The notes beneath the pieces were generated by a model. It worked only from the letters and a program-made list of their open reading frames with translations, was not told the origin of the DNA and ran no database searches. Below, piece by piece: positions 1,027-18,578 of a DNA stretch of 19,556 bases. The translations under genes and the position numbers were made by a program. Origin of the DNA: Candidatus Hadarchaeota archaeon (lineage in GTDB: Archaea > CAYQAE01 > CAYVLA01); assembly GCA_964621445.1 (NCBI GenBank), contig CAZUNO010000036.1, positions 1-19,556 on the forward strand. Reading direction: 5' to 3'. Position 1 is the stretch's first letter. Each line of letters starts with the position of its first letter.

Positions 1027-2049
1027 CTATTCAGGGCGAGCATCGAAGTAGATGGACCCCTGGTAATCCTGGTCCAGGAACTGGTCCGGTATGGCAACGA
1101 ACACGAAGATCTGAACTTCCCCATGGCCGGAAAGCCCGTCCAGAAACCGCTGATTTTGGGGAGAGAGGATTAGTAGAGGTTTTCCCACCTCCGGGGGGGC
1201 AGTAGATTCATCGTCATCCAGAGTGAAGTCCTCCGGGTTGAGCGTAAAGGAGGGGTTCTCCTTTCCCACGAAGGTCGTTGATCCCACCTCCACCTTGAAA
1301 AGGTGGTTACTTCGGTATGTTAGGACCAGATCGGATCGGGATTCGCCTCCTGGTGCCCCCTCTATGGGCAGGTAGCTGGTGCTTAACCCAAGATATAGGT
1401 ATCGGTTAATTGTGAATCTCCGGGTTAGATTAGCTTCCTTCTCCTCGTCAGATACGGCAACGAAGACGAACCATTCCGAGGCCCAGGCCGTCCTATTCAC
1501 CCTTCCCCTGAAAAGCCAGTTAGCGTTGGCACCGCTGAGATTTGTCGGGGAGATACAATCCTCTATAAGCAGGTTAACTCCCTGGAATCCCTGGCCCTGG
1601 ACCCATTCAAAGGTGTAGTGGTCCGAGGGCGAATCATCCGCGTCCAGCTCGGATCGTGGCGAGTACATCACGACCTTGATGTTGAGAATATCTTCCGCGG
1701 TATTATTATCCCGGGCCCTTACCTGAATGGAGAATGGAACTCCGGGGTCAATGAACTCGGTCTGGATTCCCTCCTCATCCAGAATCTCCAACCCGTCCAC
1801 ATGGGGACCTGCGTTGAGTATATAGAAGGTAATGGGTATCTCAACCCCACCATCCGCGATGACCTGTATGGCGGAGGCTCCAAGAGCGAGGTAAACGGCC
1901 AATAACAGGAAACATCTCTCGAAGGTTGTTTGCTTCGTAGCTCTTCCTCCGACTTGGTCTTTAAGGTCCGAGGAAGTTCTTACCTTAAGGAAATTCAGCC
2001 CAAGCTTACCCGTGATGGACATTTCACAAACCAGCTGTGAGAATTTCAT
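1027..2049 (-). CDS. Family A secreted protein, copy A1 (two beta-sandwich domains; putative filament/surface subunit)
   Basis: Hydrophobic signal segment then EIPITFYILNAGP. Shares RDNNT..DI, YSP.S, HY.F.W, F.LDDD and IP..F.DQDY.G.I.F with 3037..3969 and 6650..7582. ATGA overlap with the stop of upstream 2046..2813. Confidence 0.85.
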   Translation of the reverse strand: MKFSQLVCEMSITGKLGLNFLKVRTSSDLKDQVGGRATKQTTFERCFLLLAVYLALGASAIQVIADGGVEIPITFYILNAGPHVDGLEILDEEGIQTEFIDPGVPFSIQVRARDNNTAEDILNIKVVMYSPRSELDADDSPSDHYTFEWVQGQGFQGVNLLIEDCISPTNLSGANANWLFRGRVNRTAWASEWFVFVAVSDEEKEANLTRRFTINRYLYLGLSTSYLPIEGAPGGESRSDLVLTYRSNHLFKVEVGSTTFVGKENPSFTLNPEDFTLDDDESTAPPEVGKPLLILSPQNQRFLDGLSGHGEVQIFVFVAIPDQFLDQDYQGSIYFDARPE

Positions 2050-2813
2050 TCCTCTTTTCTCTGGAGCATTTTCCTGAAAGCGAAGAATAGGGGAACGGAG
2101 CAGGCTATCAGTATGGCCGAGCCCACCGCCGGTATCAAACTCTTTCCCTCATTGCGCACGTAAACGGTCACACTGCAATCTTCCATGAAATCGCCATCCC
2201 CAAGTTCAGCCCTTATGGTATGCTCCCCGTTTTTCCACTCGGAGGTGGACCAGGTGAAGGAATCATCGTGTGATACCAGCTCGTCATCCACGAAAATGTT
2301 GATCGGTCCCTGCTCGGAATCCAGGACCTCGACCGCGACATGCACCTCTCCGGAAACCGTTTCCCCGTCCTTGGGGAATACTATACTCAACCTGGGCTGA
2401 TGGACCGGTTTTGTAAAGGTTACATTGAATTCGCGGCTGGCCAGTGGAATTATCTGGGGCCCCTCAACCGAGACCACTACCTTACCAGCGTAGGAACCCT
2501 CGGCCGGGGGGCTTCCATATGTGACCGGTATCTTTCTGTTTTCTCCGGGTTCCAGGCTCCAGAGCTCTTCACGGATGATCACCCAGCGACTGCCCTCACC
2601 CTCTACTCCCACTCGGTATAGACCCGATGAGTTGCCCTCATTGTATACCCTAATATAGGAGGTGATGTTCTCTCCCAGGCTAGCCTTGAATTCCTGCTGG
2701 GGTCCGGATATGGCCAGGCCAGGACTACAAGTAGCCGTTTGTATCATGGCAAAGGAAGCCACCAGAATTAGAATTACACCCGATTTTTCCTTGCTCACGA
2801 AGGTGGGGAACAA
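2046..2813 (-). CDS. Family B membrane-anchored protein, copy B1 (PapD/DUF916/NEW3-like module + Big_7-like Ig domain + C-terminal TM)
   Basis: Signal peptide; GLAISGPQQ...SYIRVYNEG...LEPGE module; Ig domain PRLSIVFPKDGETVSGEV...IFVDDELV...FTWST...NGEHTIRAE; TM LIPAVGSAILIACSVPLFFAF followed by a basic tail. Paralog of 5874..6653. Start is TTG 2813 or GTG 2798. Confidence 0.85.
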   Translation of the reverse strand: MFPTFVSKEKSGVILILVASFAMIQTATCSPGLAISGPQQEFKASLGENITSYIRVYNEGNSSGLYRVGVEGEGSRWVIIREELWSLEPGENRKIPVTYGSPPAEGSYAGKVVVSVEGPQIIPLASREFNVTFTKPVHQPRLSIVFPKDGETVSGEVHVAVEVLDSEQGPINIFVDDELVSHDDSFTWSTSEWKNGEHTIRAELGDGDFMEDCSVTVYVRNEGKSLIPAVGSAILIACSVPLFFAFRKMLQRKEE

Positions 2814-2977
2814 ACGGGGAATGAAAAATGCTAGTTGCCTTGAAGCAATTAGATTCAGATTTTTACAATTACCAGCCTAGGAAGCACGTTAGTATGGGAT
2901 TATCTCAGTGTCAATTTTCTCCATTGTGTAAATTTCAATCAGTATTGCGAACCGTCAAAGAGGAATGTTATGCCTCT

Positions 2978-2992
2978 GCAAAACTTTAAAGG
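2978..2992 (+). promoter_or_regulatory. Putative archaeal BRE + TATA box for the A2-D1-C1 operon
   Basis: GCAAAACTTTAAAGG in the AT-rich divergent intergenic region, upstream of an SD-like GGGAAGGT (3023-3030) and a TTG start at 3037. Confidence 0.5.
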
Positions 2993-3036
2993 CCTTTCGC
3001 CATCTTTTTCTTTACAGAGAAAGGGAAGGTTTCAGA

Positions 3037-3969
3037 TTGTCCGGTCGTAGAATATATTTCCTGGCCCTAACGGCGGTGGTCATGGTGCTATCAATGGCTT
3101 GTTCCAGAATACCCTCCAGCGCCGGCGAGGAGATTCCAGTGGTGGCCTACATCCAAAACGCCGAACCGGAGATCATCTCCACCGGCATGGTCGATGAACA
3201 GGGAAACCCGGAGACATCGGTAGACCCGGCGTCAACCTTCCTTTTGGAGGTCGAGGTCAGGGACAACAACACCATGCTTGACGTGGAGACCATAACCGTG
3301 GTACTCTATTCGCCGGAATCAACGCTGGAGGATCCCGACTCGGAAGTGGATCACTATACCTTCCAGTGGACCTCCGCCGGTTTCTCAAACCCCGGGGGAG
3401 TTGGAGAGATCATGCATTCATCGTGTCAGACCCCATCGGAGATGACCGCGGGAACCGGGATATGGATCATAGCGGCCCGGACCCATCGCCTGGCCAGGGA
3501 GGCCGAGGAATGGACGGTACATGCCACGGTGACCGATGAAGAGAACCAGAGCACGGCCCTATCCACCTTCGATGTTACGGGATTCATATCCCTGAACGTT
3601 GAGGACTCCCAGATCACCTTTTCCGGCTCACCCGGTGATACGGTCCCCGCCGATCAAAACCCAATTCGCATGACCTATACCTCAAATCGTTACTGCAAGA
3701 TCGGCTGTTGGTGCACGGGATTCGTGGGCAGCGAGGTGGATACGGTGGTCATCGACCCGTCGTCCTTTAGCATCGACGACGACCCGTATCATGAGGAGAC
3801 CCAGGAAACCGGCATGTCACCGGTAATTCTATCCGGGAACCGGGTCGAGATTTATTCAGGCCTATCCCCCGGCCAGGAGGACGAAGAGGTATACGTATTC
3901 ATCGACATTCCCCAGGCATTTCTGGATCAGGATTACCTGGGAACCCTTAGTTTTCAGATATACACGTGA
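3037..3969 (+). CDS. Family A secreted protein, copy A2
   Basis: ORF track gives 2965..3969. TTG 3037 is preferred because an SD precedes it, the TATA box lies inside the longer ORF, and the signal peptide follows directly. Motifs EEIPVVAYIQNAEP, RDNNTMLDV, PADQNPI, SFSIDDD, QDYLGTLSF. Confidence 0.85.
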   Translation: MSGRRIYFLALTAVVMVLSMACSRIPSSAGEEIPVVAYIQNAEPEIISTGMVDEQGNPETSVDPASTFLLEVEVRDNNTMLDVETITVVLYSPESTLEDPDSEVDHYTFQWTSAGFSNPGGVGEIMHSSCQTPSEMTAGTGIWIIAARTHRLAREAEEWTVHATVTDEENQSTALSTFDVTGFISLNVEDSQITFSGSPGDTVPADQNPIRMTYTSNRYCKIGCWCTGFVGSEVDTVVIDPSSFSIDDDPYHEETQETGMSPVILSGNRVEIYSGLSPGQEDEEVYVFIDIPQAFLDQDYLGTLSFQIYT

Positions 3970-4919
3970 AGACCATGAAACCAAAAAGAGATTTCATCCG
4001 GAAAGCCGCATTCTCGATATCCATTATTCTCCTCTCCATCTCCCTTGTCTTTGTGGTGGCCTCTGGGATAGGCCTAAGTGGGCCCGAACAGGATTTTCAT
4101 GTCCAGCCCGGAGACGGCCTTTCCTCACATCTGATCGTGTGGAACGAGGGAGGATCCGAGGAGGAATACGAGGCATGGGTGACCGGCGACATCTCCCAGC
4201 TGCTATCGGTTGATCCTATGACCTTCACCTTGTCCCCGGGCCAGGGAGTTACCCTGTCCCTGGAATACTCAGTACAATCAGGGCAAGCCCAGGGTACGTA
4301 CGAGGGACGCCTACAGGTGGCAGTGAAGGGGAACGGAATCTCCCCCTCCATATCTCGTGACCTGGTTCTGGCAGTTACCACCGGGACCACCTCCCGGATG
4401 GACCTCCAGGCAGGCATAAACCTGGTGACCTGGAGGGGGCCCAGCGGGAGTTTTGGCGATCTTATACCCAGCGACTCGGGCCTGTTCAAGATATGGAAGA
4501 GGACCCAGGATGGGAGCTACACCCAGGCCCAGTATTACTCCGAACAGGACCTGTGGTGGAGCACCGATGACGGTTTCACTGGTATCGAGACGGGGGAGGC
4601 CTACTTCTTCGAGACTGACCGGGAATGCACCCTGGACATCGAGGAACTGCCCCCCGCGGATAACATAGGTCTAAACGAGGGGCTGAACCTTGTCGGATGG
4701 AGCCACGACTCCGCCAGCTTTCAGGATGCATTCCCGCAGTCCCCGGACGATAATTACGTGGATAAGATCTGGAGGAAGGAGAGTGACGGGAGCTATTCCT
4801 TCGCCCAGTACTACCAGGAGGAGGACCAGTGGTGGAGTTCAACCCCGGATTTTCAGGGCCTGGAAACCGGAAGGGCATACTTCGTTGAGGCCAACAGGGG
4901 CGTTGAATTGACCCCCTAG
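3966..4919 (+). CDS. Family D secreted protein, copy D1 (PapD/NEW3-like module + two Trp/Tyr-rich G-x-N-L repeats)
   Basis: GTGA overlap with the A2 stop. Signal peptide, then GIGLSGPEQ...IVWNEG...FTLSPGQ module and two ~70 aa repeats. Collinear paralog of 7590..8525. Confidence 0.85.
   Translation: MKTMKPKRDFIRKAAFSISIILLSISLVFVVASGIGLSGPEQDFHVQPGDGLSSHLIVWNEGGSEEEYEAWVTGDISQLLSVDPMTFTLSPGQGVTLSLEYSVQSGQAQGTYEGRLQVAVKGNGISPSISRDLVLAVTTGTTSRMDLQAGINLVTWRGPSGSFGDLIPSDSGLFKIWKRTQDGSYTQAQYYSEQDLWWSTDDGFTGIETGEAYFFETDRECTLDIEELPPADNIGLNEGLNLVGWSHDSASFQDAFPQSPDDNYVDKIWRKESDGSYSFAQYYQEEDQWWSSTPDFQGLETGRAYFVEANRGVELTP
4404..4889 (+). repeat. Two intragenic protein-level tandem repeats in D1 (4404-4613 and 4671-4889)
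   Basis: LQAGINLVTW..KIWKRTQDGSYTQAQYY..WWS..FTGIETGEAYFFE versus LNEGLNLVGW..KIWRKESDGSYSFAQYY..WWS..FQGLETGRAYFVE. Also visible in the DNA: GCCCAGTA(T/C)TAC and GTGGTGGAG each occur twice. Confidence 0.9.
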
Positions 4920-4931
4920 GAGGATGATTGA

Positions 4932-5726
4932 ATGCCGAAACCCCCCGCAATTCTGCTATTCTCATTAACCATTATCGTCCTCCCCGTCTGCCTTGCGGAT
5001 CTCGATGTGAATGCCCTAGCCGGGAGGGTAGTCATCGGCAAGGAGCCAGCTCCCGCTGGAACCCAGATCAGGATAATTAATGCAGAGACCGGATTTTCCC
5101 TTACCACCAAGGTCGATGGACCGAATATTCCACCCTTCGCCAGATCCGAGGGAAGATATGAAACGGGAGATATGCCCGAGATGAGTACCGGGGATACGGT
5201 CATGGTCTCCGTCGACGGGTACAACTGGAACACTGAGATAAGTCTGGAGGCCGGAACAACCGAAGCGTACCTGGTAATAGTAACATTTCAGAATATCGAG
5301 GAAGACCATCAACCATATCGGCTTGAGGGCGCCGCCACAATAGGAGGGATATCCGGATTAGATTTGCCCGGAGCGGGAATCCTCTCGTCACCGCTTCCGG
5401 TGGACATATCTGCCAGACTGGGAAATTTGGGATCGTTGACTCTGGATTCAATTGGAGACCTATCCAATCGAGCACAACAAAGAATTGACAAAGTGAGGGA
5501 TGAGGTTCAGGACATCGCCGGCATCCTATCAATAATCTCCAGTAAAATCCGAGATATCATTCGAAGGTTGCCCCTAACCATTGCACTTACCCTTCTAGCC
5601 CCGCCCTCCTTTGCAGGTATGGTCTTCGTAATCTATCGGTATCGACGACCTGACACCCGTGTTACCAAGGAGGAGGTCAAGAGCGATGCCAGGGAAACCG
5701 ATGTTTTCTGGGACCCAGTGGGATGA
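4932..5726 (+). CDS. Family C membrane-anchored protein, short copy C1 (carboxypeptidase-regulatory/transthyretin-like tip domain, short helical linker, C-terminal TM)
   Basis: Strong SD GGAGGATGA upstream. Signal peptide ending CLA-D; domain DLDVNALAGRV..EPAPAGT..GRYETGD..TGDTV.VSV shared with 8488..10548; TM LPLTIALTLLAPPSFAGMVFVIY followed by RYRR. Confidence 0.85.
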   Translation: MPKPPAILLFSLTIIVLPVCLADLDVNALAGRVVIGKEPAPAGTQIRIINAETGFSLTTKVDGPNIPPFARSEGRYETGDMPEMSTGDTVMVSVDGYNWNTEISLEAGTTEAYLVIVTFQNIEEDHQPYRLEGAATIGGISGLDLPGAGILSSPLPVDISARLGNLGSLTLDSIGDLSNRAQQRIDKVRDEVQDIAGILSIISSKIRDIIRRLPLTIALTLLAPPSFAGMVFVIYRYRRPDTRVTKEEVKSDARETDVFWDPVG

Positions 5727-5835
5727 AAGAGGTCATTATTTTCACCGATAGCATGCCAAATCAAAAGCATGGACAGGGATGCGAAGGGTTTGAATGAAAA
5801 GTTTTAGAATATGGATCGACCTGCCTAATATTAAT

Positions 5836-5853
5836 TGAAAACATTTTCATATA
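5836..5853 (+). promoter_or_regulatory. Putative promoter/operator upstream of the B2-A3-D2-C2 operon
   Basis: TGAAAACATTTTCATATA: an inverted repeat TGAAAA-CA-TTTTCA overlapping a BRE/TATA-like element about 25 nt before ATG 5874. A related TGAAAAGTTTTAG lies at 5795-5807. Confidence 0.35.
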
Positions 5854-5873
5854 GTAAGAAGGGGAACCCCCTG

Positions 5874-6653
5874 ATGCCCCTAAGGCCGATCGCATTCATA
5901 GTGACAGCTATTCTTCTACTGTCACCTACTATGGCAAAAAGAGGGGTAGGTGTCTCCGGCCCGGACCAGGTCTTCTCCCTCACCCCCGGTAGCAATCTGA
6001 GTTCCTACCTAAGGGTCTACAACACCGGTGATGAGGTAACCACATACTCGGTTAAGGTTGAGGGTAACGTCTCCCGTTTCCTATCTCCGGAAAGCGATAG
6101 TATCGTGATAGATCCAGGGGAAAACCAGAAGCTTGAACTCACCTATAGGACCAAACATGACGACCTACCGGGAGAATACACCGGATCCTTCCTGGTTTCC
6201 ATCGGAGGCCAGCAGGTATCCCCCGGCGTGAGCAAGAGGGTAAGGATAATCATCGCTGGTACGGCCCCCAACCGACCGCCAAAGATAGCATTTCTGAGCC
6301 CGACTCAGGGCAAAGTTTCCGGTGAGGTCGATATCAGAGTCAATGCCTCCGATCCCGACGGAGACAGGCTGACAATCCATATATTCGTAGATGGCGATAT
6401 GGTCTCCGAATCTGAGATCTTCGTATGGGATACCACCCAGGTGGAGGAGGGCACTCACAACCTAACGGCCACCGCGAGCGATGGGGAGGACTTGGAGAGG
6501 GCGGAGCTATCGGTTGTGGTAGATAACGTCGAGCAAAATCGTGATTGGCTTTGGATCGTAACCTCGCTGGGTCTCTTCGTTATTTTCCTTATCCTGGCCG
6601 CTGCCAGGGGAGCTTCACACCAGAATGATGCCCGGAGGGAGAATACGGATTGA
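5874..6653 (+). CDS. Family B membrane-anchored protein, copy B2
   Basis: ORF track gives 5835..6653; ATG 5874 directly precedes the signal peptide. GVGVSGPDQ...SYLRVYNTG...IDPGENQ module; Ig domain NRPPKIAFLSP..VSGEV...DPDGD...IFVDG...WDTT...GTHNLTATASDG; C-terminal TM WLWIVTSLGLFVIFLILAAA. Confidence 0.85.
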   Translation: MPLRPIAFIVTAILLLSPTMAKRGVGVSGPDQVFSLTPGSNLSSYLRVYNTGDEVTTYSVKVEGNVSRFLSPESDSIVIDPGENQKLELTYRTKHDDLPGEYTGSFLVSIGGQQVSPGVSKRVRIIIAGTAPNRPPKIAFLSPTQGKVSGEVDIRVNASDPDGDRLTIHIFVDGDMVSESEIFVWDTTQVEEGTHNLTATASDGEDLERAELSVVVDNVEQNRDWLWIVTSLGLFVIFLILAAARGASHQNDARRENTD

Positions 6654-7582
6654 AAATTGGTAGATCATCCGGCCCAGGAGCCTTCATGGTCCTTCTCATT
6701 TCATTACTAATCATCCTTGGAGGAATACCAGCGACATCCTCGGAGGAGATTCCAATAGTGGTTAACATTCTAAATGCGGCCCCTGAGTTAGTTGATCTAT
6801 CGATATCGATAATGGGATCCGAATACGGTTCGGTTGATCCCGGGATGCAGTTTTCGGTAAACGTGACTGCGAGGGACAACAACACGGTAGCCGATATCGA
6901 TGAGATCGATCTAGTACTCTATTCACCATTCTCAACCGAATGGGGGAACCCCGATCCCGCTAATCATTACGCTTTCCGGTGGCGGGCGGGAAATGGATTT
7001 ACCAACCCCGGTGGCACTGGAGAGATATTTGGTGGCATCTCAAGCGAACCCTCTTCACTAGCTTCGGGAATGGGTAGCTGGATTTTCTCGGTCAAGATGG
7101 ACAAGTCCGCTATTCATTCCGACCAATGGACCCTGTCGGCCAGGATCAGTGATGACGAGGATGAGGGCAGTGGGACCGGAGAGTTCACGGTCAACAAATA
7201 CAGCTCGCTATACATTGATACCTCCGAGATCTCCTTCTCCGGCGTTCCGGGAAGCACGTCACCGGCTGATCAGAACCCCATATCGATCCGTTATAGCTCA
7301 AATTATGAACTTGATCTCGCCTGCTGGGCCACGGACTTCGTTGGCCGGGAGAGGCCAGAGGTGACCATAGGCCCAGCCTCCTTCATAGTGGACGACGATG
7401 ATAGCTTAGAGCCGCCGGAACAGGGAGCGAATTCACTCGAGCTTTCGGGGTCCCGGAAGACATTCCTTGGTGGCCGATCCCCGGCACAGGACTCCGGGAT
7501 GAATGTCCACCTGTTCATCCGTATTCCCGATTCCTTCTACGACCAGGAGTACGATGGACACATATTTTTTGATTTAAGGTGA
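6650..7582 (+). CDS. Family A secreted protein, copy A3
   Basis: TTGA overlap with the B2 stop. Signal peptide; EEIPIVVNILNAAP, RDNNTVADI, PADQNPI, SFIVDDDD, QEYDGHIFF. Confidence 0.85.
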   Translation: MKIGRSSGPGAFMVLLISLLIILGGIPATSSEEIPIVVNILNAAPELVDLSISIMGSEYGSVDPGMQFSVNVTARDNNTVADIDEIDLVLYSPFSTEWGNPDPANHYAFRWRAGNGFTNPGGTGEIFGGISSEPSSLASGMGSWIFSVKMDKSAIHSDQWTLSARISDDEDEGSGTGEFTVNKYSSLYIDTSEISFSGVPGSTSPADQNPISIRYSSNYELDLACWATDFVGRERPEVTIGPASFIVDDDDSLEPPEQGANSLELSGSRKTFLGGRSPAQDSGMNVHLFIRIPDSFYDQEYDGHIFFDLR

Positions 7583-7589
7583 CCAATAG

Positions 7590-8525
7590 ATGCAATATAC
7601 CCGTGGCATAGCACTAGTCCTCTCCTTTCTGGCAGCTCTTCTAGTTATAGTTTCAATATCAGGTGGCGGGGTGGGCCTTAGCGGTCCGGAACAGACACAT
7701 GAGATTCCTTTAGGAGGGAGCGTTAGCTCCTACCTGAGAGTGTGGAACGAGGGTTCCTCGGAAGGGAAATTCGCAGTTCAGGTTCTGGGTGAGGTGGAAT
7801 CCATGGTTGATCCGGATCCCATCTCCTTCACCCTTGGTCCTGGGGAGCAGAGAACCATCTCCCTAATCTACAGCGTTCCGGGAGATATGGAACCGGGGTC
7901 CTACTCGGGGATCATAACAGCCAGATTCCAGGGTGACATCTCGAGCCAGGTTTCCCGAGATATCGAGGTGGCCGTGAAGGGCCAGGTCCAGGATGGAGGC
8001 CAACTATCCCTCAGGAAGGGGTTGAATCTAATCGGGTGGTTTGGTGAAAATCTAAGCTTTTCGGAGGCCCTGGACGGGGTTGATGGACCCAAGAAGATCT
8101 GGCGTAGAAAACCTGATGGTTCATATACCTCGGCGGAGTATTACCCATCGGTGGGGGTTTGGTGGAGTTCCGATTCCCAGTTTACCGGACTGAAAAACGG
8201 AAAGGCCTACTTCGTGGAATGCGAAAAGGCCTGCACGATTAATTTGAACGAAATGACCGACTCGGGCCCCACCAAACTCGAGAAGGGGACCAACCTCATA
8301 GTCTGGAAATGGGGGGATGCCGCTATTTCAGAGGCCTTCCCCCAGGAGCCCAGTCAATATGAGATCACCAAGATCTGGAGAAGCGGGGTCGACGGAGAGT
8401 ACGAGTTCACTCAGTACTACCCATCTGCTGACTTATGGTGGAGCGAGACATCTTCATTTACAGAATTAGAGAGAGGGAAAGCATATTTTGTCGAAGTACT
8501 TGCTGAAATGTGGATTAACGGATAG
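7590..8525 (+). CDS. Family D secreted protein, copy D2
   Basis: SD AGGTGA overlaps the A3 stop, 7 nt before the ATG. GVGLSGPEQ...SYLRVWNEG...FTLGPGEQ module plus two Trp/Tyr-rich repeats. Confidence 0.85.
   Translation: MQYTRGIALVLSFLAALLVIVSISGGGVGLSGPEQTHEIPLGGSVSSYLRVWNEGSSEGKFAVQVLGEVESMVDPDPISFTLGPGEQRTISLIYSVPGDMEPGSYSGIITARFQGDISSQVSRDIEVAVKGQVQDGGQLSLRKGLNLIGWFGENLSFSEALDGVDGPKKIWRRKPDGSYTSAEYYPSVGVWWSSDSQFTGLKNGKAYFVECEKACTINLNEMTDSGPTKLEKGTNLIVWKWGDAAISEAFPQEPSQYEITKIWRSGVDGEYEFTQYYPSADLWWSETSSFTELERGKAYFVEVLAEMWING
8010..8495 (+). repeat. Two intragenic protein-level tandem repeats in D2 (8010-8219 and 8277-8495)
   Basis: LRKGLNLIGW..KIWRRKPDGSYTSAEYYPS..WWS..FTGLKNGKAYFVE versus LEKGTNLIVW..KIWRSGVDGEYEFTQYYPS..WWS..FTELERGKAYFVE. 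Confidence 0.9.
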
Positions 8526-10548
8526 AGCTTCGCTAGGCGCTCGAACGAGCCTGATCGTCCTAGCCATATTGCTAACGGCCGCCGGCGTTCATGCGGACCT
8601 GGACATAAACGCAGTGGCCGGGGTAGTTGAGATAGATGGCGAACCGGCCTCCGCGGGCACCTCAATAATGGTCAGGGATCTGAACACCGGGGCAACCGCG
8701 ACCACCCCGGTGGATGGCTCTAGCATTCCCTCCTTTCTCAAGGGCCAGGGTCGATACGACACCGGCGACGTTCCAGGCTTCAACACCGGTGACACCGTGG
8801 TGGTCTCGGTTAGCGAAACCGGAATAAAGGGAGAGGCCTCAGCCGTCCTGGTCGCCGGAACCACGACCATAAATCTAGAGGCTCGTCGTGAGCGATCCCC
8901 CAGCATAGGGAATATCCCCGATCAGGAGGGATTTGAGGATGTCGCCTGGGAGCTTGACCTCGATCCCTACATCTCGGACCCGGACACCCCCAAGAGCAAG
9001 CTAGATGTCGGGGTTCAATCCGGATATACGGAGGTAAAGGGGCATGTGATCACCTTTCTCTACCCCGAGGGCGTTCTCTCCGAGACGGTTAGGGTCTACG
9101 TTCGCGATGGCTCCTCGACGGTCTCCAGGAGAATTCAGGTTACGGTTAACCCCGTAAACGACCCGCCCCGGCTAGCGGAGATATCAAATATCACGATCAT
9201 GGAGGGTACCAATGCATCATTGAACCTGTCAGGCCACGTTCAGGATCCTGATGACCAACTCGAGGATTTCTGCTGGGGAGTTGATGAGGGAGATCTGGTC
9301 ACCGCCTGGATGGAAGGCCCGGTCCTGACCGTCGTTGCCCCGGATAGCGATTACGGACACGATTCATTCCAGATCTGGGTTTTGGATTCGGGCAACCTCT
9401 CGGCTAGCCAGTTGGTATCTGTCGAGGTCGAGGCAAACGTAACCGCCCTGAAGGAGGCATATGAAGGACAGATCGAATCCCTCAGGGCAGAGATCGAGAA
9501 TCTGGAGGCCAATAACACAAACCTGGCCTCCGAGATCGATTCCCTGTGGAGAGAGCTCAATACCCTGGAGATAAGAAAAACGGAGCTCCAAACACAGCTG
9601 AAGGAAAAGGAGGACCTGGTTTCCACCTTTCAGGAACGGATTAGACGGGTGGAAAGCTCGGACGATGAGAAGGCGGCCCTGATTATGGAACTGGAACATC
9701 AAAGGGATAATCTCACGGCGGAAATAGATGACCTAAACAAGGAATTGGATGAGGTCCAATCAGCTCATAACCAGACCAGGAAGGAGCTCGAATCGACTAA
9801 ATCGGAGTCGCAAACCAGAATCCAAAACCTGGCCCTCATCTTGCTCCAGACCCGGGAACTTCTTTCCCAATCCAGGGAGAATATCACCGCACTGGTTCAA
9901 ATGGTGGCAGATCTTAGCGATAAACTCGATGCCAAGAGAGCTCAACTCGGTTCGGCAAATCTTGGTATCGAAAATCTGGAGGCGGTAATCGAAGCCCTCC
10001 GGGAGAATAACCGGCTATTGAAGGAGGAAAATCTGCAGATGGAGGCGAGTATCAGCCAATCATCCGAGGATATCATATCCCTGGAGCTGAAAAACATGCG
10101 ACAGCTCGCAGAAATCGAGCGTCTAAGAAGCATAATGGCCACCCGAGAGATTAATTCCTCCCAGGTAAACCCGCCCCTTGCCCGTATGTTCTCGAAGGCA
10201 GCAGATTTTGTGAAATCAGGAAACGAGGCCATAAATGACGGATTGAGAAATGAACTTCTATTGGCGATCATTCTCCTAGTTGCTGCGGCATCAACCATTA
10301 CCATAGTTATGAGAACATCCTGGATGAAGATGGTAGACGAAGACGGTTTTGATAGGATTCTCCGGATTATGGGAAGGGCAATTAGGGTTCTGGGCCGGCT
10401 TAGCACTAGAATCAAGAAAAAGCAACGCTCTGAAAGGGAGTTGAGCGAGACCGACCGTCAATATATATGGGGCCTCCGCAGACTAGGCTTCGATAAGGAG
10501 GCCGATGAATACCTGGATAGTCTACCCACAGAGGAGGAAGAGCCCTAG
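8488..10548 (+). CDS. Family C membrane-anchored protein, long copy C2 (tip domain + two cadherin-like Ig domains + long coiled coil + TM + cytoplasmic tail)
   Basis: Signal peptide ending VHA-D; tip domain homologous to C1; cadherin-like motifs ED..LDL..YISDPD, VTVNPVNDPP, DPDD; heptad-rich region at about 9445-10137; TM LLLAIILLVAAASTITIVM (10255-10311). Start is TTG 8488 or 8500. Confidence 0.88.
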   Translation: MSKYLLKCGLTDRASLGARTSLIVLAILLTAAGVHADLDINAVAGVVEIDGEPASAGTSIMVRDLNTGATATTPVDGSSIPSFLKGQGRYDTGDVPGFNTGDTVVVSVSETGIKGEASAVLVAGTTTINLEARRERSPSIGNIPDQEGFEDVAWELDLDPYISDPDTPKSKLDVGVQSGYTEVKGHVITFLYPEGVLSETVRVYVRDGSSTVSRRIQVTVNPVNDPPRLAEISNITIMEGTNASLNLSGHVQDPDDQLEDFCWGVDEGDLVTAWMEGPVLTVVAPDSDYGHDSFQIWVLDSGNLSASQLVSVEVEANVTALKEAYEGQIESLRAEIENLEANNTNLASEIDSLWRELNTLEIRKTELQTQLKEKEDLVSTFQERIRRVESSDDEKAALIMELEHQRDNLTAEIDDLNKELDEVQSAHNQTRKELESTKSESQTRIQNLALILLQTRELLSQSRENITALVQMVADLSDKLDAKRAQLGSANLGIENLEAVIEALRENNRLLKEENLQMEASISQSSEDIISLELKNMRQLAEIERLRSIMATREINSSQVNPPLARMFSKAADFVKSGNEAINDGLRNELLLAIILLVAAASTITIVMRTSWMKMVDEDGFDRILRIMGRAIRVLGRLSTRIKKKQRSERELSETDRQYIWGLRRLGFDKEADEYLDSLPTEEEEP

Positions 10549-10553
10549 ACTTC

Positions 10554-11381
10554 CTAAGGCCATTCCCGGAACACCTCATATTTCTGGAAGAGAGCGTCAA
10601 GGAATTCGCCCCGAGAAATAGCCCCAAGCGTTTTCCACCCCGGATTCTCCTCATGCGGCATCATCTGCGAGACGTGGTTCTCCAGTGCCTGGCGCTTGCG
10701 TTCAAGAAGGTCGCCCACATAGATCGAGCAGGAGAAATCCGTCCAGAACTTGATTGACGCGGAAATGCTCTTTCTGATAAATCCAAGTACCCGATCAGGA
10801 TCCCAGTTAAAGCCAACCCACGGCCAGTGGTTCCAGAACCAGACCGGATATTCAAACGCCTTGGAGATGCCATGGCTTTCAAGCACCCGACGGACGATAT
10901 GATTGGTGGCTATGTGGTCCGGGTGCTCCCCCCCTGGGTAAGGCATGAAAATATGGCGGGGTTCAGAATCGTCAAGCTTACTTAAAATTTCCCGTTCGGC
11001 CTCCTCCTTCCCCTTTTCAAGCGATCCAGTGCCCTTCCATGTCCCTGCGGACTGGAAGGGAAGAAAATGCACGTCGCTTTCGGGGATGCCAATGGACTTG
11101 CATGCCTGGATCGCCTCCCTCTGGCGGATTATACCCATCTTGGCAGGGGACACGAACCTGGTGTGGGATCTCTCTCCTCTAGTCATATAGACTACTGAAA
11201 CATGGGCCCCGGTCTCCAGCTTCCGAAGTATGGTCCCCCCACAACCCAGGGTTTCGTCATCAGGATGGGGGGAAATAACCATCGAGGAGGCTTCCATATC
11301 GAATTGGTCATCGCACTGGATTCTTTTCATTCTACGAATATACAGGTTTTTGAAGGTGGATCGGCCAAAGGTCAAAATCAA
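10554..11381 (-). CDS. PIG-L/LmbE-family N-acetylhexosamine deacetylase
   Basis: Hallmark motifs VISPHPDDETLGCGG, MTRGE, R..EA..AC..IG, HPDH, K..AL..H.SQ. True start may be ATG 11330 or 11297. Confidence 0.92.
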   Translation of the reverse strand: MILTFGRSTFKNLYIRRMKRIQCDDQFDMEASSMVISPHPDDETLGCGGTILRKLETGAHVSVVYMTRGERSHTRFVSPAKMGIIRQREAIQACKSIGIPESDVHFLPFQSAGTWKGTGSLEKGKEEAEREILSKLDDSEPRHIFMPYPGGEHPDHIATNHIVRRVLESHGISKAFEYPVWFWNHWPWVGFNWDPDRVLGFIRKSISASIKFWTDFSCSIYVGDLLERKRQALENHVSQMMPHEENPGWKTLGAISRGEFLDALFQKYEVFREWP

Positions 11382-11431
11382 TCACGATCTGACTTGAATC
11401 TATTTCAAGTTATTGGAAGAATCATTTTGTA

Positions 11432-13336
11432 TCATTTATCGCGTAAGTCTATCTTAACTTCATGCCTGCCCTGGTTCAGTCCGATCAGGAGATATCTTCG
11501 ACCATGAACCAGGACCTCCCGCTTTCTGGAACTTGTCTCTCCATTGACATAAACCGAAGGATCCCCAGATTCACTGGAGAGATGAAGCATTATCGCCGAG
11601 TTATTTACAGGGGATTCGCAGGAGAATGAGAGGCCTTCACCGTCCATTTGTAGGCCGCTAACATTGATCCTTCCCCTGGATTTCCACCAAAGGACGAACT
11701 CCGATAATGTGAATAGAGCATGGTTGTGCTTCCTAGCCAGCTCATCAAATACCAGCCAGTCCCTTCTGGAAGGTTGTCCTTCAACCAGATCACATGGATG
11801 GTAAAGAGCGTTGATAACCTGGTGATAGCAGTTCCTACTGTTCTCCAACAGCTCATCAATGTAGATCTGATTTATGCCTGAATATTGGGCCTGTATCTGG
11901 AATGGAAGTTCATATAGGGAAAATGGCTCCCCGTTGGTATCTAATGGATGAAAGGGCAGCCCAGTACCGTACATGTATCCCTTTCCGGTTCTCCCCGCGG
12001 ACCCTAGGGATGAATCCAAGGCTATAGACTGCGCCTCCATTATTCGAAAGGGCCTGGTGTAATGATTTCCCCAGCGTAATCTCTCGATCCTGCAAAGGGA
12101 TACACCCCCCGGGTCCGATAACTTATCTTCCAGGACCTCAATTTGATCCTCCAGACTACCTTCTCCTCTTCGAAAGACCATTAGCCATCGGTGGACCTCC
12201 CGATTCCAGTGTATGTGAATATCTCCCCCGAGGTTATTCATCCTCTCCAGCCCTTCGTCCGTTACCGGACCCTTGGAAATAATGAAGAACGTGGAGTTGT
12301 AGTCGGATTTTCTCTCCTCCTCCAAAACGAAGCAGGACTCGTCACCAAACCAATCCTCGTCATGGGTCATGGTAACTACACCATCATGCTGGAAGGGAAA
12401 GTACCAGGGTCTTGGCATTGGCCTGATTTCCTCGACAAGTGATATTATCCACCTTTCCAGGAGATCGGCATAGGGTATGTCGGATACCATGTGTTCGGTG
12501 GATGCCAACAGGTCGGTGGAGTCAACGATTCCCTCCGACCCCCTCTTGTCAACTACGCGAAAGCCGTCATCCGGAATGCCCTGCTGAAGTACCGTGAGTT
12601 CACGCCCAACGTCGAAGGCGAAGGAGATGACGCCACCTTTTCCCATCTCCCTTAGGAATACTACCGGTTCCCCGTCCATGCTCATCTTGATCACGGTACC
12701 CTCAACTGGACTGATGCTCTGGCAGTTTGTGTACAGGGGTATATCCCCAATCCTTTCAAGCCCATCATTTTCCGCCCCGGATATTTCATTCGGAATCCAG
12801 GTCGGATCGTCAAGCTTTTCCAGCCCCCCAAGTTCCAGTAATTTCCCCGCCGGAAACTCGACTATCAGGACCCCCCCGGCCTCAACCCAGGTTCTAAGAG
12901 CCGATATATCATATTTATCCCCGGCACCAGCTCCGGTTATCACCACCAGACTTATATTTTCAAGGAATTCCGGCCCGATCATTTCGGGGGAAGCTATGGA
13001 CAGGCCACCGGTCTCCTGTTCAAGCAGGTTTGCCCACTGGTAGCACCAGTCCGTTGACTCAAAGTCTGTACCATCCATGCGGGACCCGATAACTAGGACC
13101 GTTGGCTTGAAATTGCCCTCGAGAAATGATCCGTTGCCCTTTAATTGGGCATTAATTGCCGGGATTTTTACCGGGTAAAGCGAAAGAAGGTTGCCAACGA
13201 CCAATAGGCAAAGCAGGGCTACCAGGCCTGCCCCCTTGCGTCCCTTACGCTGGGGGTAGCGAGTATAGATCAGGAATACGATGACTAATACCAAGGAGGG
13301 AAGGGTTATCTGAGCGATGGTTCGCATTACCGACAT
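11432..13336 (-). CDS. Membrane-anchored multidomain polysaccharide deacetylase-like protein (class I glutamine-amidotransferase-like domain + NodB/CE4-like barrel + C-terminal beta domain)
   Basis: Two N-terminal hydrophobic helices; LRTWVEAGGVLIV and GKGGVISF (GATase-like trimerisation-type domain); PWYFP...VTMTHDED, STFFI, IHIHW, LDSS, GTGLPF, YELP, ALYHP (deacetylase barrel). Confidence 0.7.
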   Translation of the reverse strand: MSVMRTIAQITLPSLVLVIVFLIYTRYPQRKGRKGAGLVALLCLLVVGNLLSLYPVKIPAINAQLKGNGSFLEGNFKPTVLVIGSRMDGTDFESTDWCYQWANLLEQETGGLSIASPEMIGPEFLENISLVVITGAGAGDKYDISALRTWVEAGGVLIVEFPAGKLLELGGLEKLDDPTWIPNEISGAENDGLERIGDIPLYTNCQSISPVEGTVIKMSMDGEPVVFLREMGKGGVISFAFDVGRELTVLQQGIPDDGFRVVDKRGSEGIVDSTDLLASTEHMVSDIPYADLLERWIISLVEEIRPMPRPWYFPFQHDGVVTMTHDEDWFGDESCFVLEEERKSDYNSTFFIISKGPVTDEGLERMNNLGGDIHIHWNREVHRWLMVFRRGEGSLEDQIEVLEDKLSDPGGVSLCRIERLRWGNHYTRPFRIMEAQSIALDSSLGSAGRTGKGYMYGTGLPFHPLDTNGEPFSLYELPFQIQAQYSGINQIYIDELLENSRNCYHQVINALYHPCDLVEGQPSRRDWLVFDELARKHNHALFTLSEFVLWWKSRGRINVSGLQMDGEGLSFSCESPVNNSAIMLHLSSESGDPSVYVNGETSSRKREVLVHGRRYLLIGLNQGRHEVKIDLRDK

Positions 13337-13385
13337 TTAACATCCCTGTGCCTGCCTCTGATACGCCCCTTCAACATGAATTTCC

Positions 13386-14105
13386 CTATTTGGGTCCCTT
13401 ACCCCCGGGGCGGCCATTCTGGGTGAATTCCCCGTTAAGTTTCTCGTAATCGGACATCTTGCCTATGTCACCCCAGAAGGCATCGGATTGGTAACCGAAA
13501 ACCCTCTCATTCTCTATAATCCTTGGAAACACGTCGTATTCCAGATTGCATGGGTCCTCGGGGGGAAAGTACTCGAAAATTCCGGGGTTACAGACGTATA
13601 CCCCGGCGTTGGCGAAGAAGGATATATCGGGTTTCTCCTCGAACTCGGTTATGCGTTTTCTACCATTTAAGGTTATCTTGCCGTAGGGCATCTTCACTTT
13701 GTATGGCTTCAGGGCTATGGTCAGAAAGGAGTCGTTTTCCTGGTGAAATTCCAGCAGCTTTGGGATCTCGAGGGAAGTGAATATATCACCGTTCATGGCC
13801 AGAAAGGTGTCTCCCACCAGCAGATCCCTTGCCGTCCTAAGCTGACCTGCTGTGCCGAGCGGCTCGTCGGTTTCGGCATATTCAATTTTGACGCCGAATT
13901 TTGACCCATCCTCGAAATAGTCCATAATCTGCCTCTTTAGATACGCCACACAGAGCACGATATCCTCGAAATCGTACTGCTTCAGGTAGTCGAGGTTTCT
14001 CTCCAGCAGGGGTTTCCCGGCTAATGGAAGCATGGGTTTGGGAACGAGGTAGGTAAGCGGTCGCATACGGCTCCCAACACCACCAACTAGGATAGCGGCC
14101 TTCAT
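13386..14105 (-). CDS. NDP-sugar synthase / sugar-phosphate nucleotidyltransferase (mannose-1-phosphate guanylyltransferase-like)
   Basis: ILVGGVGSRMRPLT..PKPMLP, EPLGTAG, NGDI, EEKP, NAGVY, WGDIG. Confidence 0.93.
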   Translation of the reverse strand: MKAAILVGGVGSRMRPLTYLVPKPMLPLAGKPLLERNLDYLKQYDFEDIVLCVAYLKRQIMDYFEDGSKFGVKIEYAETDEPLGTAGQLRTARDLLVGDTFLAMNGDIFTSLEIPKLLEFHQENDSFLTIALKPYKVKMPYGKITLNGRKRITEFEEKPDISFFANAGVYVCNPGIFEYFPPEDPCNLEYDVFPRIIENERVFGYQSDAFWGDIGKMSDYEKLNGEFTQNGRPGGKGPK

Positions 14106-14207
14106 TGAATCCCCTTATTGCATGCAGGTATTAAGGACCTAACCATGATCATTCCGATTTACCTGCTATTGGTCATCAATACCATTTGAAGTATTTTCTT
14201 TCTCCAC

Positions 14208-15584
14208 TTACCGAAGGAAGCTGCTGGGAGGCCTGCCAATTCCCCTGTAGATGTATTTCAATGACCTCTTTGGATCGATCATGGCTCGGGTGTCAACGAT
14301 GACCAGTGGACCCCGGGCCAGAGAGGCAAGCCGGTCGGGATCCAGATCCTTGAATTCTGGATGATCAGTTGCCAGAAGGACGCAGTCCGAATCCCTTACT
14401 GCCGCCTCAATGGATCCCACCGTTGACTTGCTTTTGACGTGAGGGTCGAAAATCGGGGTTTGCGCCCCTTCCTCCTTAAGCTTATGCAGCAATTTACTCA
14501 CCGGGGTGTTTCGGGTATCGTCTGTATCTCCCTTGAACGCATAGCCCAGCACGGCTACCTGTGATTCCGAAAGCTCCTTCCCGGCGTCAGATAATCCATC
14601 ACGTACGAGATCCAGGACATGTTCCGGCATCCGGTCATTGATATCCCTGCCCGTGGGAATCATTCTTGCCTTATTTGAGCCTTCCCCAGCTGACTGAAGG
14701 AATATATACGGGTCCTTGGTGAGACACGAGCCTCCCACCCCCGGACCGGGCATCAGTAGATTCGTGCGCTTATACTCGGTATTGGCGGCGTTTGAGGCCT
14801 CCACGTAATCTACATGGGCGCTTTCACAGAGGATCGCCAGTTCATTGGCCAGGGCTATATTCACATCTCTGTATATGTTGTCAAATAGCTTTGCGGCCTC
14901 GGCCTCGCGGGGACTGGATACCTTAACCACCCGACCTCCCAGTTTACCGAAGAGTGCGGCAGCAACCCGAGTGCTGTCCTCGTCGATACCCCCGACGATC
15001 TTGGGAAGCGTACGCATCTCGGAAACAGCTCGTCCCTCGACCGTACGTTCGGGAATGAATGCCAATCCAAATTCCACTGCTTTCATCCCGGATTCCTCCT
15101 CGATTATGGGTGCCACCTTCTTCTCCGTGGTGAGGGGCGGAACCGTGCTCTTGAGAACCACCAGGCTGCCAGGAGAGAGGTTTTTCCCCACGGAGCGAGC
15201 CGCACTTTCCAGATAATCGAAGACTACGTTATGGTCTTCATCAATGGGTGTGCCGACGGTAATAACCACCAGGTCGGAGGGGCTCACCGCGCTTGCGGGA
15301 GAATCGGTTGCCCTAAGCCTCCCTGCTTCGACACTCCGCCGTAGAATTTCCGACAGCCCCGGCTCATAGATGTGAGAGGATCCCTTGTTGATACTCTCCA
15401 CCACCTGGGGACTGGACTCCAAACCAATTACCTTCTGGCCCTGGTCCGAGAACAGTGAAGCAACAACCGTTCCCACATAACCCATTCCCACAACGCAGAT
15501 GTTGAATCCAGATGAGGTATACTTGTGGTTGATTTCTTCTTCAGTCATTGACAATAACCGGGACCTTTTCTCCATGGACATCAA
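14208..15584 (-). CDS. Nucleotide-sugar dehydrogenase (UDP-N-acetylhexosamine dehydrogenase, WecC/WbpA-like)
   Basis: VVGMGYVG, TVGTP, LKSTVPP, PER, AEAAKLFDNIYRDVNIALANE, PGPGVGGSCLTKDP (catalytic Cys), GYAFKGDTDDTRNTP. Overlaps the stop of the upstream epimerase. Confidence 0.93.
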   Translation of the reverse strand: MMSMEKRSRLLSMTEEEINHKYTSSGFNICVVGMGYVGTVVASLFSDQGQKVIGLESSPQVVESINKGSSHIYEPGLSEILRRSVEAGRLRATDSPASAVSPSDLVVITVGTPIDEDHNVVFDYLESAARSVGKNLSPGSLVVLKSTVPPLTTEKKVAPIIEEESGMKAVEFGLAFIPERTVEGRAVSEMRTLPKIVGGIDEDSTRVAAALFGKLGGRVVKVSSPREAEAAKLFDNIYRDVNIALANELAILCESAHVDYVEASNAANTEYKRTNLLMPGPGVGGSCLTKDPYIFLQSAGEGSNKARMIPTGRDINDRMPEHVLDLVRDGLSDAGKELSESQVAVLGYAFKGDTDDTRNTPVSKLLHKLKEEGAQTPIFDPHVKSKSTVGSIEAAVRDSDCVLLATDHPEFKDLDPDRLASLARGPLVIVDTRAMIDPKRSLKYIYRGIGRPPSSFLR

Positions 15585-16576: not shown

Positions 16577-16680
16577 GACACTATTATTGAGGGAGATCAG
16601 ATATGTCTTCCCCGGTTCCATGGCCTGACGTAGGGATCCATTCAATTGGTTTTCATGAAACGCATTTCTTCTACCAGGCA

Positions 16681-16719
16681 GCCGACATATATTGCTCGGC
16701 ATTAAATTGGTTGAGGGAT
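16681..16719 (+). promoter_or_regulatory. Putative TATA box within an inverted repeat, plus SD, for 16720..18543
   Basis: GCCGA-CATATATTGC-TCGGC (16681-16700), followed by GAGGGA immediately before ATG 16720. Confidence 0.35.
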
Positions 16720-18543: not shown

Positions 18544-18578
18544 TGGGAAATATCCCTTGAGTCTCGAGCAAAGCCGGA

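Follow-up and report, generated by a model that had tools for sequence, protein, structure and literature searches.

Gene content of the cassette

We analysed a 19,556-nucleotide (nt) stretch of contig CAZUNO010000036.1 from a Candidatus Hadarchaeota archaeon (assembly GCA_964621445.1), hereafter the window, in which nine adjoining open reading frames (ORFs) at positions 1027-10548 fall into four paralogous families, termed A (three copies), B, D and C (two copies each; Table 1). This nine-gene cassette may represent a type of archaeal fibre or adhesin not described before. No further ORF of at least 180 residues lies between the nine, and Rfam and tRNA scans found no rRNA or tRNA gene in the window. 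A preliminary description of the sequence had proposed these nine genes, their coordinates and their family grouping, and all were borne out by the ORFs and by all-against-all BLASTP. Specifically, A1, A2 and A3 are 35-41% identical (E 1e-55 to 2e-72; A2 and A3 41%, E 2e-72), B1 and B2 33% (E 3e-37), D1 and D2 40% (E 3e-80), and C1 and C2 50% over their N-terminal approximately 106 residues only (E 5e-23). On these alignments the paralogy of families A, B, C and D is far beyond chance. The earlier count of four families stands as paralogy, but B and D are not independent of each other, as they have an N-terminal immunoglobulin (Ig) domain in common (approximately 32% identity, E 3e-14 to 8e-19). 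Furthermore, D contains an internal tandem repeat of two Trp-rich copies, approximately 85 residues each.

Overlapping start and stop codons join B1 to A1 (ATGA at 2046-2049, minus strand), A2 to D1 (GTGA at 3966-3969) and B2 to A3 (TTGA at 6650-6653). The D1 stop lies within a Shine-Dalgarno-like TAGGAGG, 12 nt ahead of the C1 ATG, and the A3 stop within a Shine-Dalgarno-like AAGGTGA, 7 nt ahead of the D2 ATG. Read directly, all the coupled junctions listed in the preliminary description are thus present, including the Shine-Dalgarno motifs over the stops at 4919 and 7582. C2 begins with TTG at 8488, so that its first 38 nt are shared with the 3' end of D2. Scans with consensus promoters (13 sites versus 8.5 +/- 2.6) and terminators (6 sites versus 10 +/- 4.1) did not rise above shuffled sequence. 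The true starts of A1 and A2 are uncertain, because the longest ORFs put approximately 28-45 residues before the hydrophobic core.

Export and transmembrane segments were called by Kyte-Doolittle windows. An N-terminal hydrophobic segment was found in all nine proteins, in agreement with the signal peptides previously assigned to each of them. B1, B2, C1 and C2 also have a C-terminal hydrophobic segment followed by basic residues, a predicted membrane anchor; the transmembrane-like segments cover residues 11-29 and 226-244 of B1 and 239-257 of B2. D has the N-terminal segment and lacks a C-terminal one. None of the nine proteins carries an LPxTG motif, a C-terminal PGF (PGF-CTERM) motif or NCBIfam match of that type, or a twin-arginine (RR) motif in the first 45 residues. 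In A, in B/D and in C, conservation starts after the hydrophobic segment, not inside it. Type IV pilin-like (class III) signal peptides were considered as well and were ruled out because the hydrophobic segments are not conserved. N-x-S/T sequons occur in seven of the nine proteins, with ten in C2 and one to four each in A1, A2, A3, B1, B2 and D2.

Table 1 Genes of the cassette, the adjoining deacetylase gene and the three loci found outside the window (MAG, metagenome-assembled genome)
Feature	Position	Strand	Description
A1	1027-2049	-	exported two-Ig-domain protein; start overlaps B1 stop (ATGA)
B1	2046-2813	-	export signal, PapD-like/CARDB-like Ig domain, Big_7 Ig domain, C-terminal transmembrane anchor
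Divergent intergenic region, B1-A1 versus A2-D1-C1	2814-2964		presumed promoter region
A2	2965-3969	+	exported two-Ig-domain protein
D1	3966-4919	+	N-terminal hydrophobic segment, PapD-like Ig domain, two Trp-rich repeats of ~85 residues; GTGA start overlaps A2 stop
C1	4932-5726	+	short form of C: signal peptide, conserved ~95-residue N-terminal domain, linker, C-terminal transmembrane segment, short basic tail
B2	5835-6653	+	architecture as B1
A3	6650-7582	+	exported two-Ig-domain protein; TTGA start overlaps B2 stop
D2	7590-8525	+	architecture as D1
C2	8488-10548	+	long form of C: signal peptide, C-type N-terminal domain, cadherin-like Ig region, ~250-residue coiled coil, transmembrane segment (586-608), ~78-residue cytoplasmic tail
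PIG-L family deacetylase	10554-11381	-	Pfam PIG-L, E 5e-29; adjoins cassette
L001 (Thermococci MAG)	B 9138-9902, A 10001-10906, D ~10914-11849, C 11902-12507; C 4557-7250		second C is long, with coiled coil
L002 (Hadarchaeota MAG)	B 2041-2862, A ~2992-3873, D 3857-4813, C 4773-5636
L003 (same Hadarchaeota MAG as L002)	A 2834-3787, D 3788-4717, C 4699-6489		long C; no B on the 10-kb contig

Conservation and annotation status

A profile of the three A proteins matched 336 representative clusters at E<=1e-3, 114 at <=1e-10 and 25 at <=1e-30. Look-alikes found with a protein language model were unnamed clusters, mostly archaeal for A, with Thermoplasmatota as the commonest phylum for the D repeats. 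A word-index homologue search with A2 returned only A2 itself, and A3 had no tblastn hit among 72,556 plasmid records.

We then scanned GTDB species genomes with a 10-row A alignment; three loci (L001, L002 and L003) were confirmed out of 86 pattern matches, and their ORFs were compared with the nine window proteins by BLASTP. The preliminary description had named recurrence of the order B-A-D-C in other archaeal genomes as a check, and the order did recur: D follows A and C follows D in all three loci, while B precedes A in two of them. The A-D-C genes are spaced by gaps or overlaps of 0-52 nt. Taken with the mostly archaeal look-alike clusters, these loci, all in archaeal MAGs, make an archaeal nature of the cassette likely, if by indirect evidence. 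That the nine genes encode functionally unrelated secreted proteins which merely lie side by side is very improbable, given the overlapping start and stop codons, an order kept in three of three outside loci at only 29-56% protein identity, and the co-occurrence of both forms of C, short and long, in every genome sampled (that of the window, that of L001 and that shared by L002 and L003). The long C of L001 aligns with C2 at 39% identity over 587 residues (E 3e-129). Three further sequences, namely P0154 and P0159 of the D family and P0169 of the B family, are each listed with a longest contig of 8,913 nt, which suggests that they may mark a further locus with one B and two D.

In a maximum likelihood tree of 20 A sequences, A2 grouped with P0005 (support 98/97), A3 with P0004 (97/95) and A1 with the A proteins of the B-A-D-C loci L001 and L002 (84/90). 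Because each copy pairs with a different sequence from outside the window, the A copies are old and maintained rather than recent duplicates.

The cassette is real, conserved and unannotated. Big_7 in B was the sole curated Pfam or NCBIfam cut-off reached in the four families (B1, E 3.6e-7, 31.2 bits versus a cut-off of 24.1; B2, E 1.6e-6, 29.1 bits). B1 also gave a CARDB match and B2 a HYDIN/VesB-like Ig match (E 8e-4), both below their cut-offs. A1-A3 and C1 had no Pfam family even at E<=1, and the Ig-type Pfam matches of D1 and D2 were all sub-threshold. For C2, the cadherin-like Ig matches were sub-threshold and approximately 250 residues matched coiled-coil families only. NCBIfam models gave nothing above cut-off for the nine proteins and 23 relatives. 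PDB sequence searches with A2 and D2 returned no significant match. One of six C sequences gave a CarboxypepD_reg/transthyretin-like match for the N-terminal domain (E 0.11), which is a lead only.

A PapD-like domain in D and B

The AlphaFold2 model of D2 (16 alignment rows) reached a predicted local distance difference test (pLDDT) value of 88.4 and was compared with the PDB by Foldseek; the counts below refer to the 44 matches listed. Among these were 14 chains of chaperone-usher chaperones (FaeE, Caf1M, CsuC, FimC, SfaE, PapD and YadV), two enterococcal WxLIP chains (9i1y_A, E 9.4e-7, and 9i25_C), one of them bound to a WxL protein, two RbmA chains, and six PapD-like/ASH/MSP domains, the best being HYDIN 2e6j (target template-modelling (TM) score 0.78, root-mean-square deviation 2.9) and OCRL 3qbt (TM score 0.73). 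The TM score to the two-domain chaperones is only 0.33-0.40 on the target, and that to the WxLIP chain 9i1y_A only 0.28-0.33. D2 was the chain modelled, and B is assigned a PapD-like domain because its N-terminal domain is homologous to that of D. A basic residue opens the last strand of this domain in 15 of 16 D sequences and in all four B and D proteins of the window. At the level of fold, these matches (PapD-like/ASH, chaperone-usher and WxLIP) lend support to the earlier proposal that D is chaperone-like, and the combination of this domain with a second Ig domain and a C-terminal transmembrane segment does the same for B as a membrane-anchored chaperone or base.

The top matches of D2 were to the Ig plus galactose-binding region of a Micromonospora sialidase (1w8o, E 9e-8, TM score 0.27), and Ig domains of GH123 and of a GalNAc-ase were found as well. 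These would fit a glycan-capture or substrate-binding surface apparatus, in which the proteins bind or process polysaccharide and the Ig domains serve as spacers. A modules fused to lectin-like Laminin_G_3 domains, an A domain 1 fused to a GH15 fragment in P0039, D repeats set in another context in P0166, and a window flank rich in sugar-nucleotide and glycosyltransferase genes point in the same direction. We consider such an apparatus rather unlikely, since the cassette holds no catalytic domain and no transporter in the window or the three outside loci, the sialidase match covers generic beta-sandwiches at its low TM score, and the flanking sugar genes look like surface-glycan biosynthesis and not catabolism.

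Two forms of C

Mature C begins with DLDVNAVAG, a stretch that hardly varies: its D, D, N and G are constant in six of six sequences. The approximately 250 coiled-coil-type residues and the transmembrane helix that follows them in C2 fit the stalk or anchor that had been envisaged for this family. The succession of beta domains, coiled coil and C-terminal transmembrane segment is also that of a SlaB-like stalk, and C2 weakly matched NF040788 SlaB (E 0.0015). Together with the sequons of the cassette proteins (ten of them in C2) and the adjoining glycosylation genes, this would suit a cell-envelope lattice in which A and D form the canopy of a surface layer (S-layer) or S-layer-associated layer. 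The match falls within the coiled coil and, at 17.5 bits versus a cut-off of 700, does not place C2 in the SlaB family. Moreover, C1 and the short C proteins of L001 and L002 have no stalk, the subunits are small (approximately 300 residues), three divergent and anciently separated A paralogues are unlike a single lattice protein, and the A module is found at the end of many large, unrelated proteins as well. An S-layer role is therefore quite unlikely.

The cytoplasmic tail of the long C is conserved in part: window positions 10441-10524 (C2 residues 652-679) and the long C of L001 are 61% identical over 28 residues. Such conservation suggests that the stalk protein may have a partner in the cytoplasm.

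The A module and its contexts

The AlphaFold2 model of A3, based on a 51-row alignment, comprises two beta-sandwich domains at approximately residues 46-181 and 185-309 (pLDDT 92.5, predicted TM score 0.81). Foldseek against the PDB gave generic tandem-Ig matches with TM scores of 0.2-0.35, including single-chain variable fragments (scFv), integrin legs, MSCRAMM adhesins and the CfaB pilin, the last a weak match (E 1.9e-5, TM score 0.35).

Conservation in the cassette-linked A subfamily (10 sequences) peaks at the two ends of the mature protein. The mean is 0.53, and the 12-residue stretches that scored highest were IPDxFxDQxYxG at the C-terminus (0.80) and EIPIVxxILNAxP at the mature N-terminus (0.77). 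In the longer relatives P0024 and P0028, the counterpart of the N-terminal strand is the last strand of a preceding Ig domain, followed by N-x-x-P-E. Since longer relatives have this strand within a preceding Ig domain, that of the stand-alone A protein appears to be an orphan strand.

Among the best 150 A relatives, 110 have at most 400 residues and 40 are longer. In these 40, the A module is C-terminal in 30, N-terminal in six and internal in four. A different set of 40 relatives was scanned against Pfam, and 10 of them carried other domains, including Big_7, GH15 and DUF362. Ahead of the A module we found Laminin_G_3 in four of the scanned proteins (P0026, P0049, P0053 and P0073), FG-GAP in three (P0026, P0037 and P0043) and DUF2341 in two (P0025 and P0043); at least one of Laminin_G_3, FG-GAP, DUF2341 and Big_7 was present in eight of the 40. 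In P0072 a DUF362 domain is fused to a C-terminal A module, and a DUF362 protein with a twin-arginine-like N-terminus is encoded directly 3' of the cassette in L001 (12670-13707). Another protein, P0021 (361 residues), combines a signal peptide, the A N-terminal strand and domain 1 (E 1e-35) with two D repeats (50% identity, E 9e-64).

Comparison with known surface filaments

Membrane-anchored PapD-like chaperones were reported only in 2026, from two bacterial groups, each of which was called their sole home (bioRxiv 10.64898/2026.10.17.759780; PMC13278184; these and the other sources on filaments are cited for the parts available). According to the first report, the product of enterococcal WxL operons is a pilus assembled through donor-strand exchange. 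The priming component is ElrE, a DUF916/DUF3324 'WxLIP' protein anchored by a membrane helix at its C-terminus; ElrD and ElrC are the pilins, ElrA the tip and ElrB the anchor. In the available part of that preprint, WxL tip adhesins are described as an invariant C-terminal attachment module with a variable payload, approximately two operons occur per genome, and among 4,698 genera the system is reported in Bacillota only (bioRxiv 10.64898/2026.10.17.759780). The Pam pili of Candidate Phyla Radiation (CPR) bacteria consist of two-domain Ig pilins (PamA/B), transmembrane-anchored PapD-like chaperones (PamC/D) and a terminator/anchor, PamR, which is RbmA-like with an extra N-terminal strand and a C-terminal transmembrane segment; the donated strand is the inter-domain linker, and the available text reports the pilins as exclusive to CPR bacteria (PMC13278184).

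By analogy, the logic of the cassette matches Elr and Pam part for part. Like the Elr/WxL system, it dispenses with usher and ATPase, is a small operon for exported proteins of Ig fold and occurs in several paralogous copies per genome, and it includes one Ig-Ig-transmembrane component (ElrE/WxLIP; here B) and a pilin-like component (here A) with a conserved strand at its mature N-terminus; the same module ends large, variable, adhesin-like proteins (here A, in the 30 long relatives). There are also clear differences from Elr/WxL. The cassette lacks a WxL domain (PF13731), with at most one W-x-L triplet per A protein, and DUF916/DUF3324 was not found at family threshold, B1 and B2 giving no WxLIP match. 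LPxTG is missing from the nine proteins, no sortase domain was found in the window, and the anchor is a transmembrane protein that in one form has a long coiled coil. Furthermore, A has two full Ig domains where WxL has one incomplete domain, an extra PapD-like protein (D) carries no transmembrane segment, and the host is archaeal.

In architecture the cassette parallels Pam pili, with A in the place of the two-domain beta-sandwich pilins, B in that of the PapD-like chaperones with a C-terminal transmembrane segment and C in that of the transmembrane-anchored terminator with an N-terminal strand (PamR). Two PapD-like paralogues per operon and the lack of a trans-envelope machine are further parallels, and RbmA is among the fold matches of D2. 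Compared by description only, the cassette differs from Pam in that its conserved strand is N-terminal (in A) and not the linker, D has no transmembrane segment, and C departs from PamR in its N-terminal domain and in the coiled coil of C2. Because every sequence-level membership test failed, with Pam set apart by description, we do not regard the cassette as a member of the Elr/WxL or Pam systems.

The fold of the N-terminal domain of B and D is also that of classical chaperone-usher pili. Unlike those pili, the cassette has no usher and no outer membrane, and its holder is membrane-anchored; no PapD_N, PapD_C or usher domain was found in a Pfam scan of all 17 window ORFs of at least 180 residues. 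The preliminary description had taken the absence of an usher, sortase or pilus ATPase as a reason why no known system fits, an argument that no longer holds now that the 2026 reports show usher-free pili. The missing usher is no obstacle, as Elr and Pam pili, in the parts of the reports available, use only a membrane-anchored PapD-like chaperone. Elr/WxL and Pam are also closer analogues than TasA and the classical chaperone-usher pili, with which the cassette had previously been compared.

For the archaeal strand-donation filaments, namely Sulfolobus threads (PMC9715654), cannulae, bundling pili and haloarchaeal tafi (PMC11821415), the available descriptions give no dedicated fold-completing chaperone; they present these filaments as chaperone-free or as needing a SipW-type peptidase (TafD) and a DUF5305 protein. 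Like the cassette, these systems have small, conserved gene clusters for beta-sandwich subunits that are exported by the Sec or Tat route, and their donor strands are N-terminal. No SipW-type peptidase (TafD), DUF5305 or TasA/camelysin-like domain was found in the window or in the flanks of L001-L003, and A had no sequence match to any solved chain in PDB sequence and profile searches. By Pfam, the window also encodes no type IV pilus or archaellum assembly ATPase, platform protein or prepilin peptidase. An A24 prepilin peptidase (Peptidase_A24 and Arc_PepC_II) is encoded at 1682-2476 of L001, 7 kb upstream behind unrelated genes, with no evidence of a link to the cassette; its presence supports an archaeal origin of that contig. 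A full-text literature search turned up no published description of a PapD-like or membrane-anchored chaperone in archaea.

Proposed assembly and the case for a static complex

We favour, with somewhat less than even confidence, the reading that the cassette builds an archaeal analogue of the membrane-anchored-chaperone, strand-exchange pili represented by Elr/WxL and Pam; the contacts between the proteins, the exchange of strands and the existence of a fibre are what we infer here. B-A-D-C would be a conserved, co-translated operon module, probably of archaea, whose product is a structure on the outer face of the cytoplasmic membrane made from Sec-exported beta-sandwich proteins. B, with its PapD-like Ig domain, Big_7 Ig domain and C-terminal transmembrane helix, would act as a membrane-tethered holder that receives A, a secreted two-Ig module. 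The interaction elements of A would be the mature N-terminal strand (EIPIVxYILNAxPE) and the C-terminal strand region (IPDxFxDQxYxGxIxFD), by which A modules could join head to tail, or to large A-ended proteins, through beta-strand complementation. D may be a second, non-anchored holder or a distal binding part, with Trp-rich repeats that possibly bind glycans. Finally, C would tether the product to the membrane, C1 as a short tether and C2 as a long coiled-coil stalk.

Several observations weigh against this proposal. The A3 model is a confident and apparently complete pair of Ig domains with generic PDB matches, and DSSP assigns no strand to residues 30-45. Domain 2 of A may be complete as well, because its C-terminal 'Y-x-G/T-x-hydrophobic' pattern resembles an ordinary last Ig strand. 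P0021, a single sequence on one 3,695-nt contig, may have arisen by a genuine exchange of domains or by a deletion spanning neighbouring A and D genes, or may be an artefact of assembly. The best single-domain TM scores of D2 belong to non-chaperone proteins (HYDIN and OCRL) and not to chaperones, and the PapD-like/ASH fold is also common in non-chaperones such as HYDIN, CEP192 and OCRL. At the sequence level, no link to pilus families was found: profiles of A, D and the C N-terminal domain matched no PDB sequence at E<0.005, no Pfam or NCBIfam model reached its cut-off for A, C or D, and WxLIP_PGBD (PF06030) was matched by one of 16 D sequences, at E 0.074. In addition, synteny outside the window was sampled at three loci. 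A complex prediction with three mature A3 chains (residues 30-310, 51-row alignment) scored 0.01 and 0.00 against a mark of 0.42, with no controls, and speaks neither for nor against binding.

It is also possible that the products form a static surface-display complex of fixed stoichiometry, in which A, alone or at the end of larger proteins, docks onto B and the stalked C as membrane receptors, D is a soluble lectin-like partner and nothing polymerises. The coupled junctions point to products made in equal amounts, the high-pLDDT model of A has the look of a complete monomer, B and C are predicted to be anchored by transmembrane segments, and a module that ends 30 of 40 long relatives recalls a dockerin or a WxL-type attachment module. 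WxL clusters themselves were read in exactly this way before 2026, as binding and stabilising complexes (PMC10599100, available part). On the other side, simple docking gives no function to the N-terminal strand of mature A, which is conserved and exposed, and the bacterial system once read so proved, according to the part of the preprint available, to be a strand-exchange pilus (bioRxiv 10.64898/2026.10.17.759780). Overall, a non-polymerising display complex is nearly as likely as assembly by strand complementation.

A more far-reaching version of the strand-exchange proposal, which we regard as doubtful, is that the cassette encodes the first chaperone-guided donor-strand-exchange pilus system of Archaea, with B as a tethered PapD-like chaperone, A as pilin and adhesin cap and C as coiled-coil stalk anchor, its families showing no sequence relationship that could be detected with the components of chaperone-usher, WxL or Pam pili. 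On that version, usher-free pili with a membrane-anchored chaperone would be a solution general to single-membrane cells, bacterial and archaeal alike.

Flanking genes

The flank of the cassette (10554-19556) encodes, according to Pfam, the PIG-L deacetylase, an NTP transferase, a UDP-glucose/GDP-mannose dehydrogenase, an NAD-dependent epimerase and a GT4 glycosyltransferase. The PIG-L protein is 36% identical (E 6e-47) to another PIG-L protein at 8005-8937 of L001, and its recurrence beside the cassette in both places means that it is possibly linked to it. GT4 recurs near the cassette in L002. The cassette proteins may be glycosylated by the flanking sugar genes.

Two further flank proteins, of 634 residues (11432-13336, minus strand) and 646 residues (16603-18543, plus strand), have hydrophobic segments and no Pfam family; they are unrelated to each other and have no counterpart in L001-L003. 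The 646-residue ORF overlaps the 5' end of the epimerase ORF on the opposite strand by 100 nt, which makes it probable that at least one of the two ORFs is called with too early a start. A membrane protein of approximately 600 residues with no Pfam family, found near the cassette in L001 (13864-15690, minus strand) and L003 (270-2051, minus strand) at 56% identity over 561 residues, is not encoded in the window.

Implications

If the strand-exchange reading is correct, the membrane-anchored-chaperone assembly principle would extend to a third major group of single-membrane cells. It would also give a function to at least four unannotated families, of which A alone accounts for the 336 representative clusters, and would provide a short, testable adhesion gene set for uncultured Hadarchaeota- and Thermococci-like lineages. 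Should the cassette encode a static display complex instead, it would still define a new archaeal surface-anchoring module.

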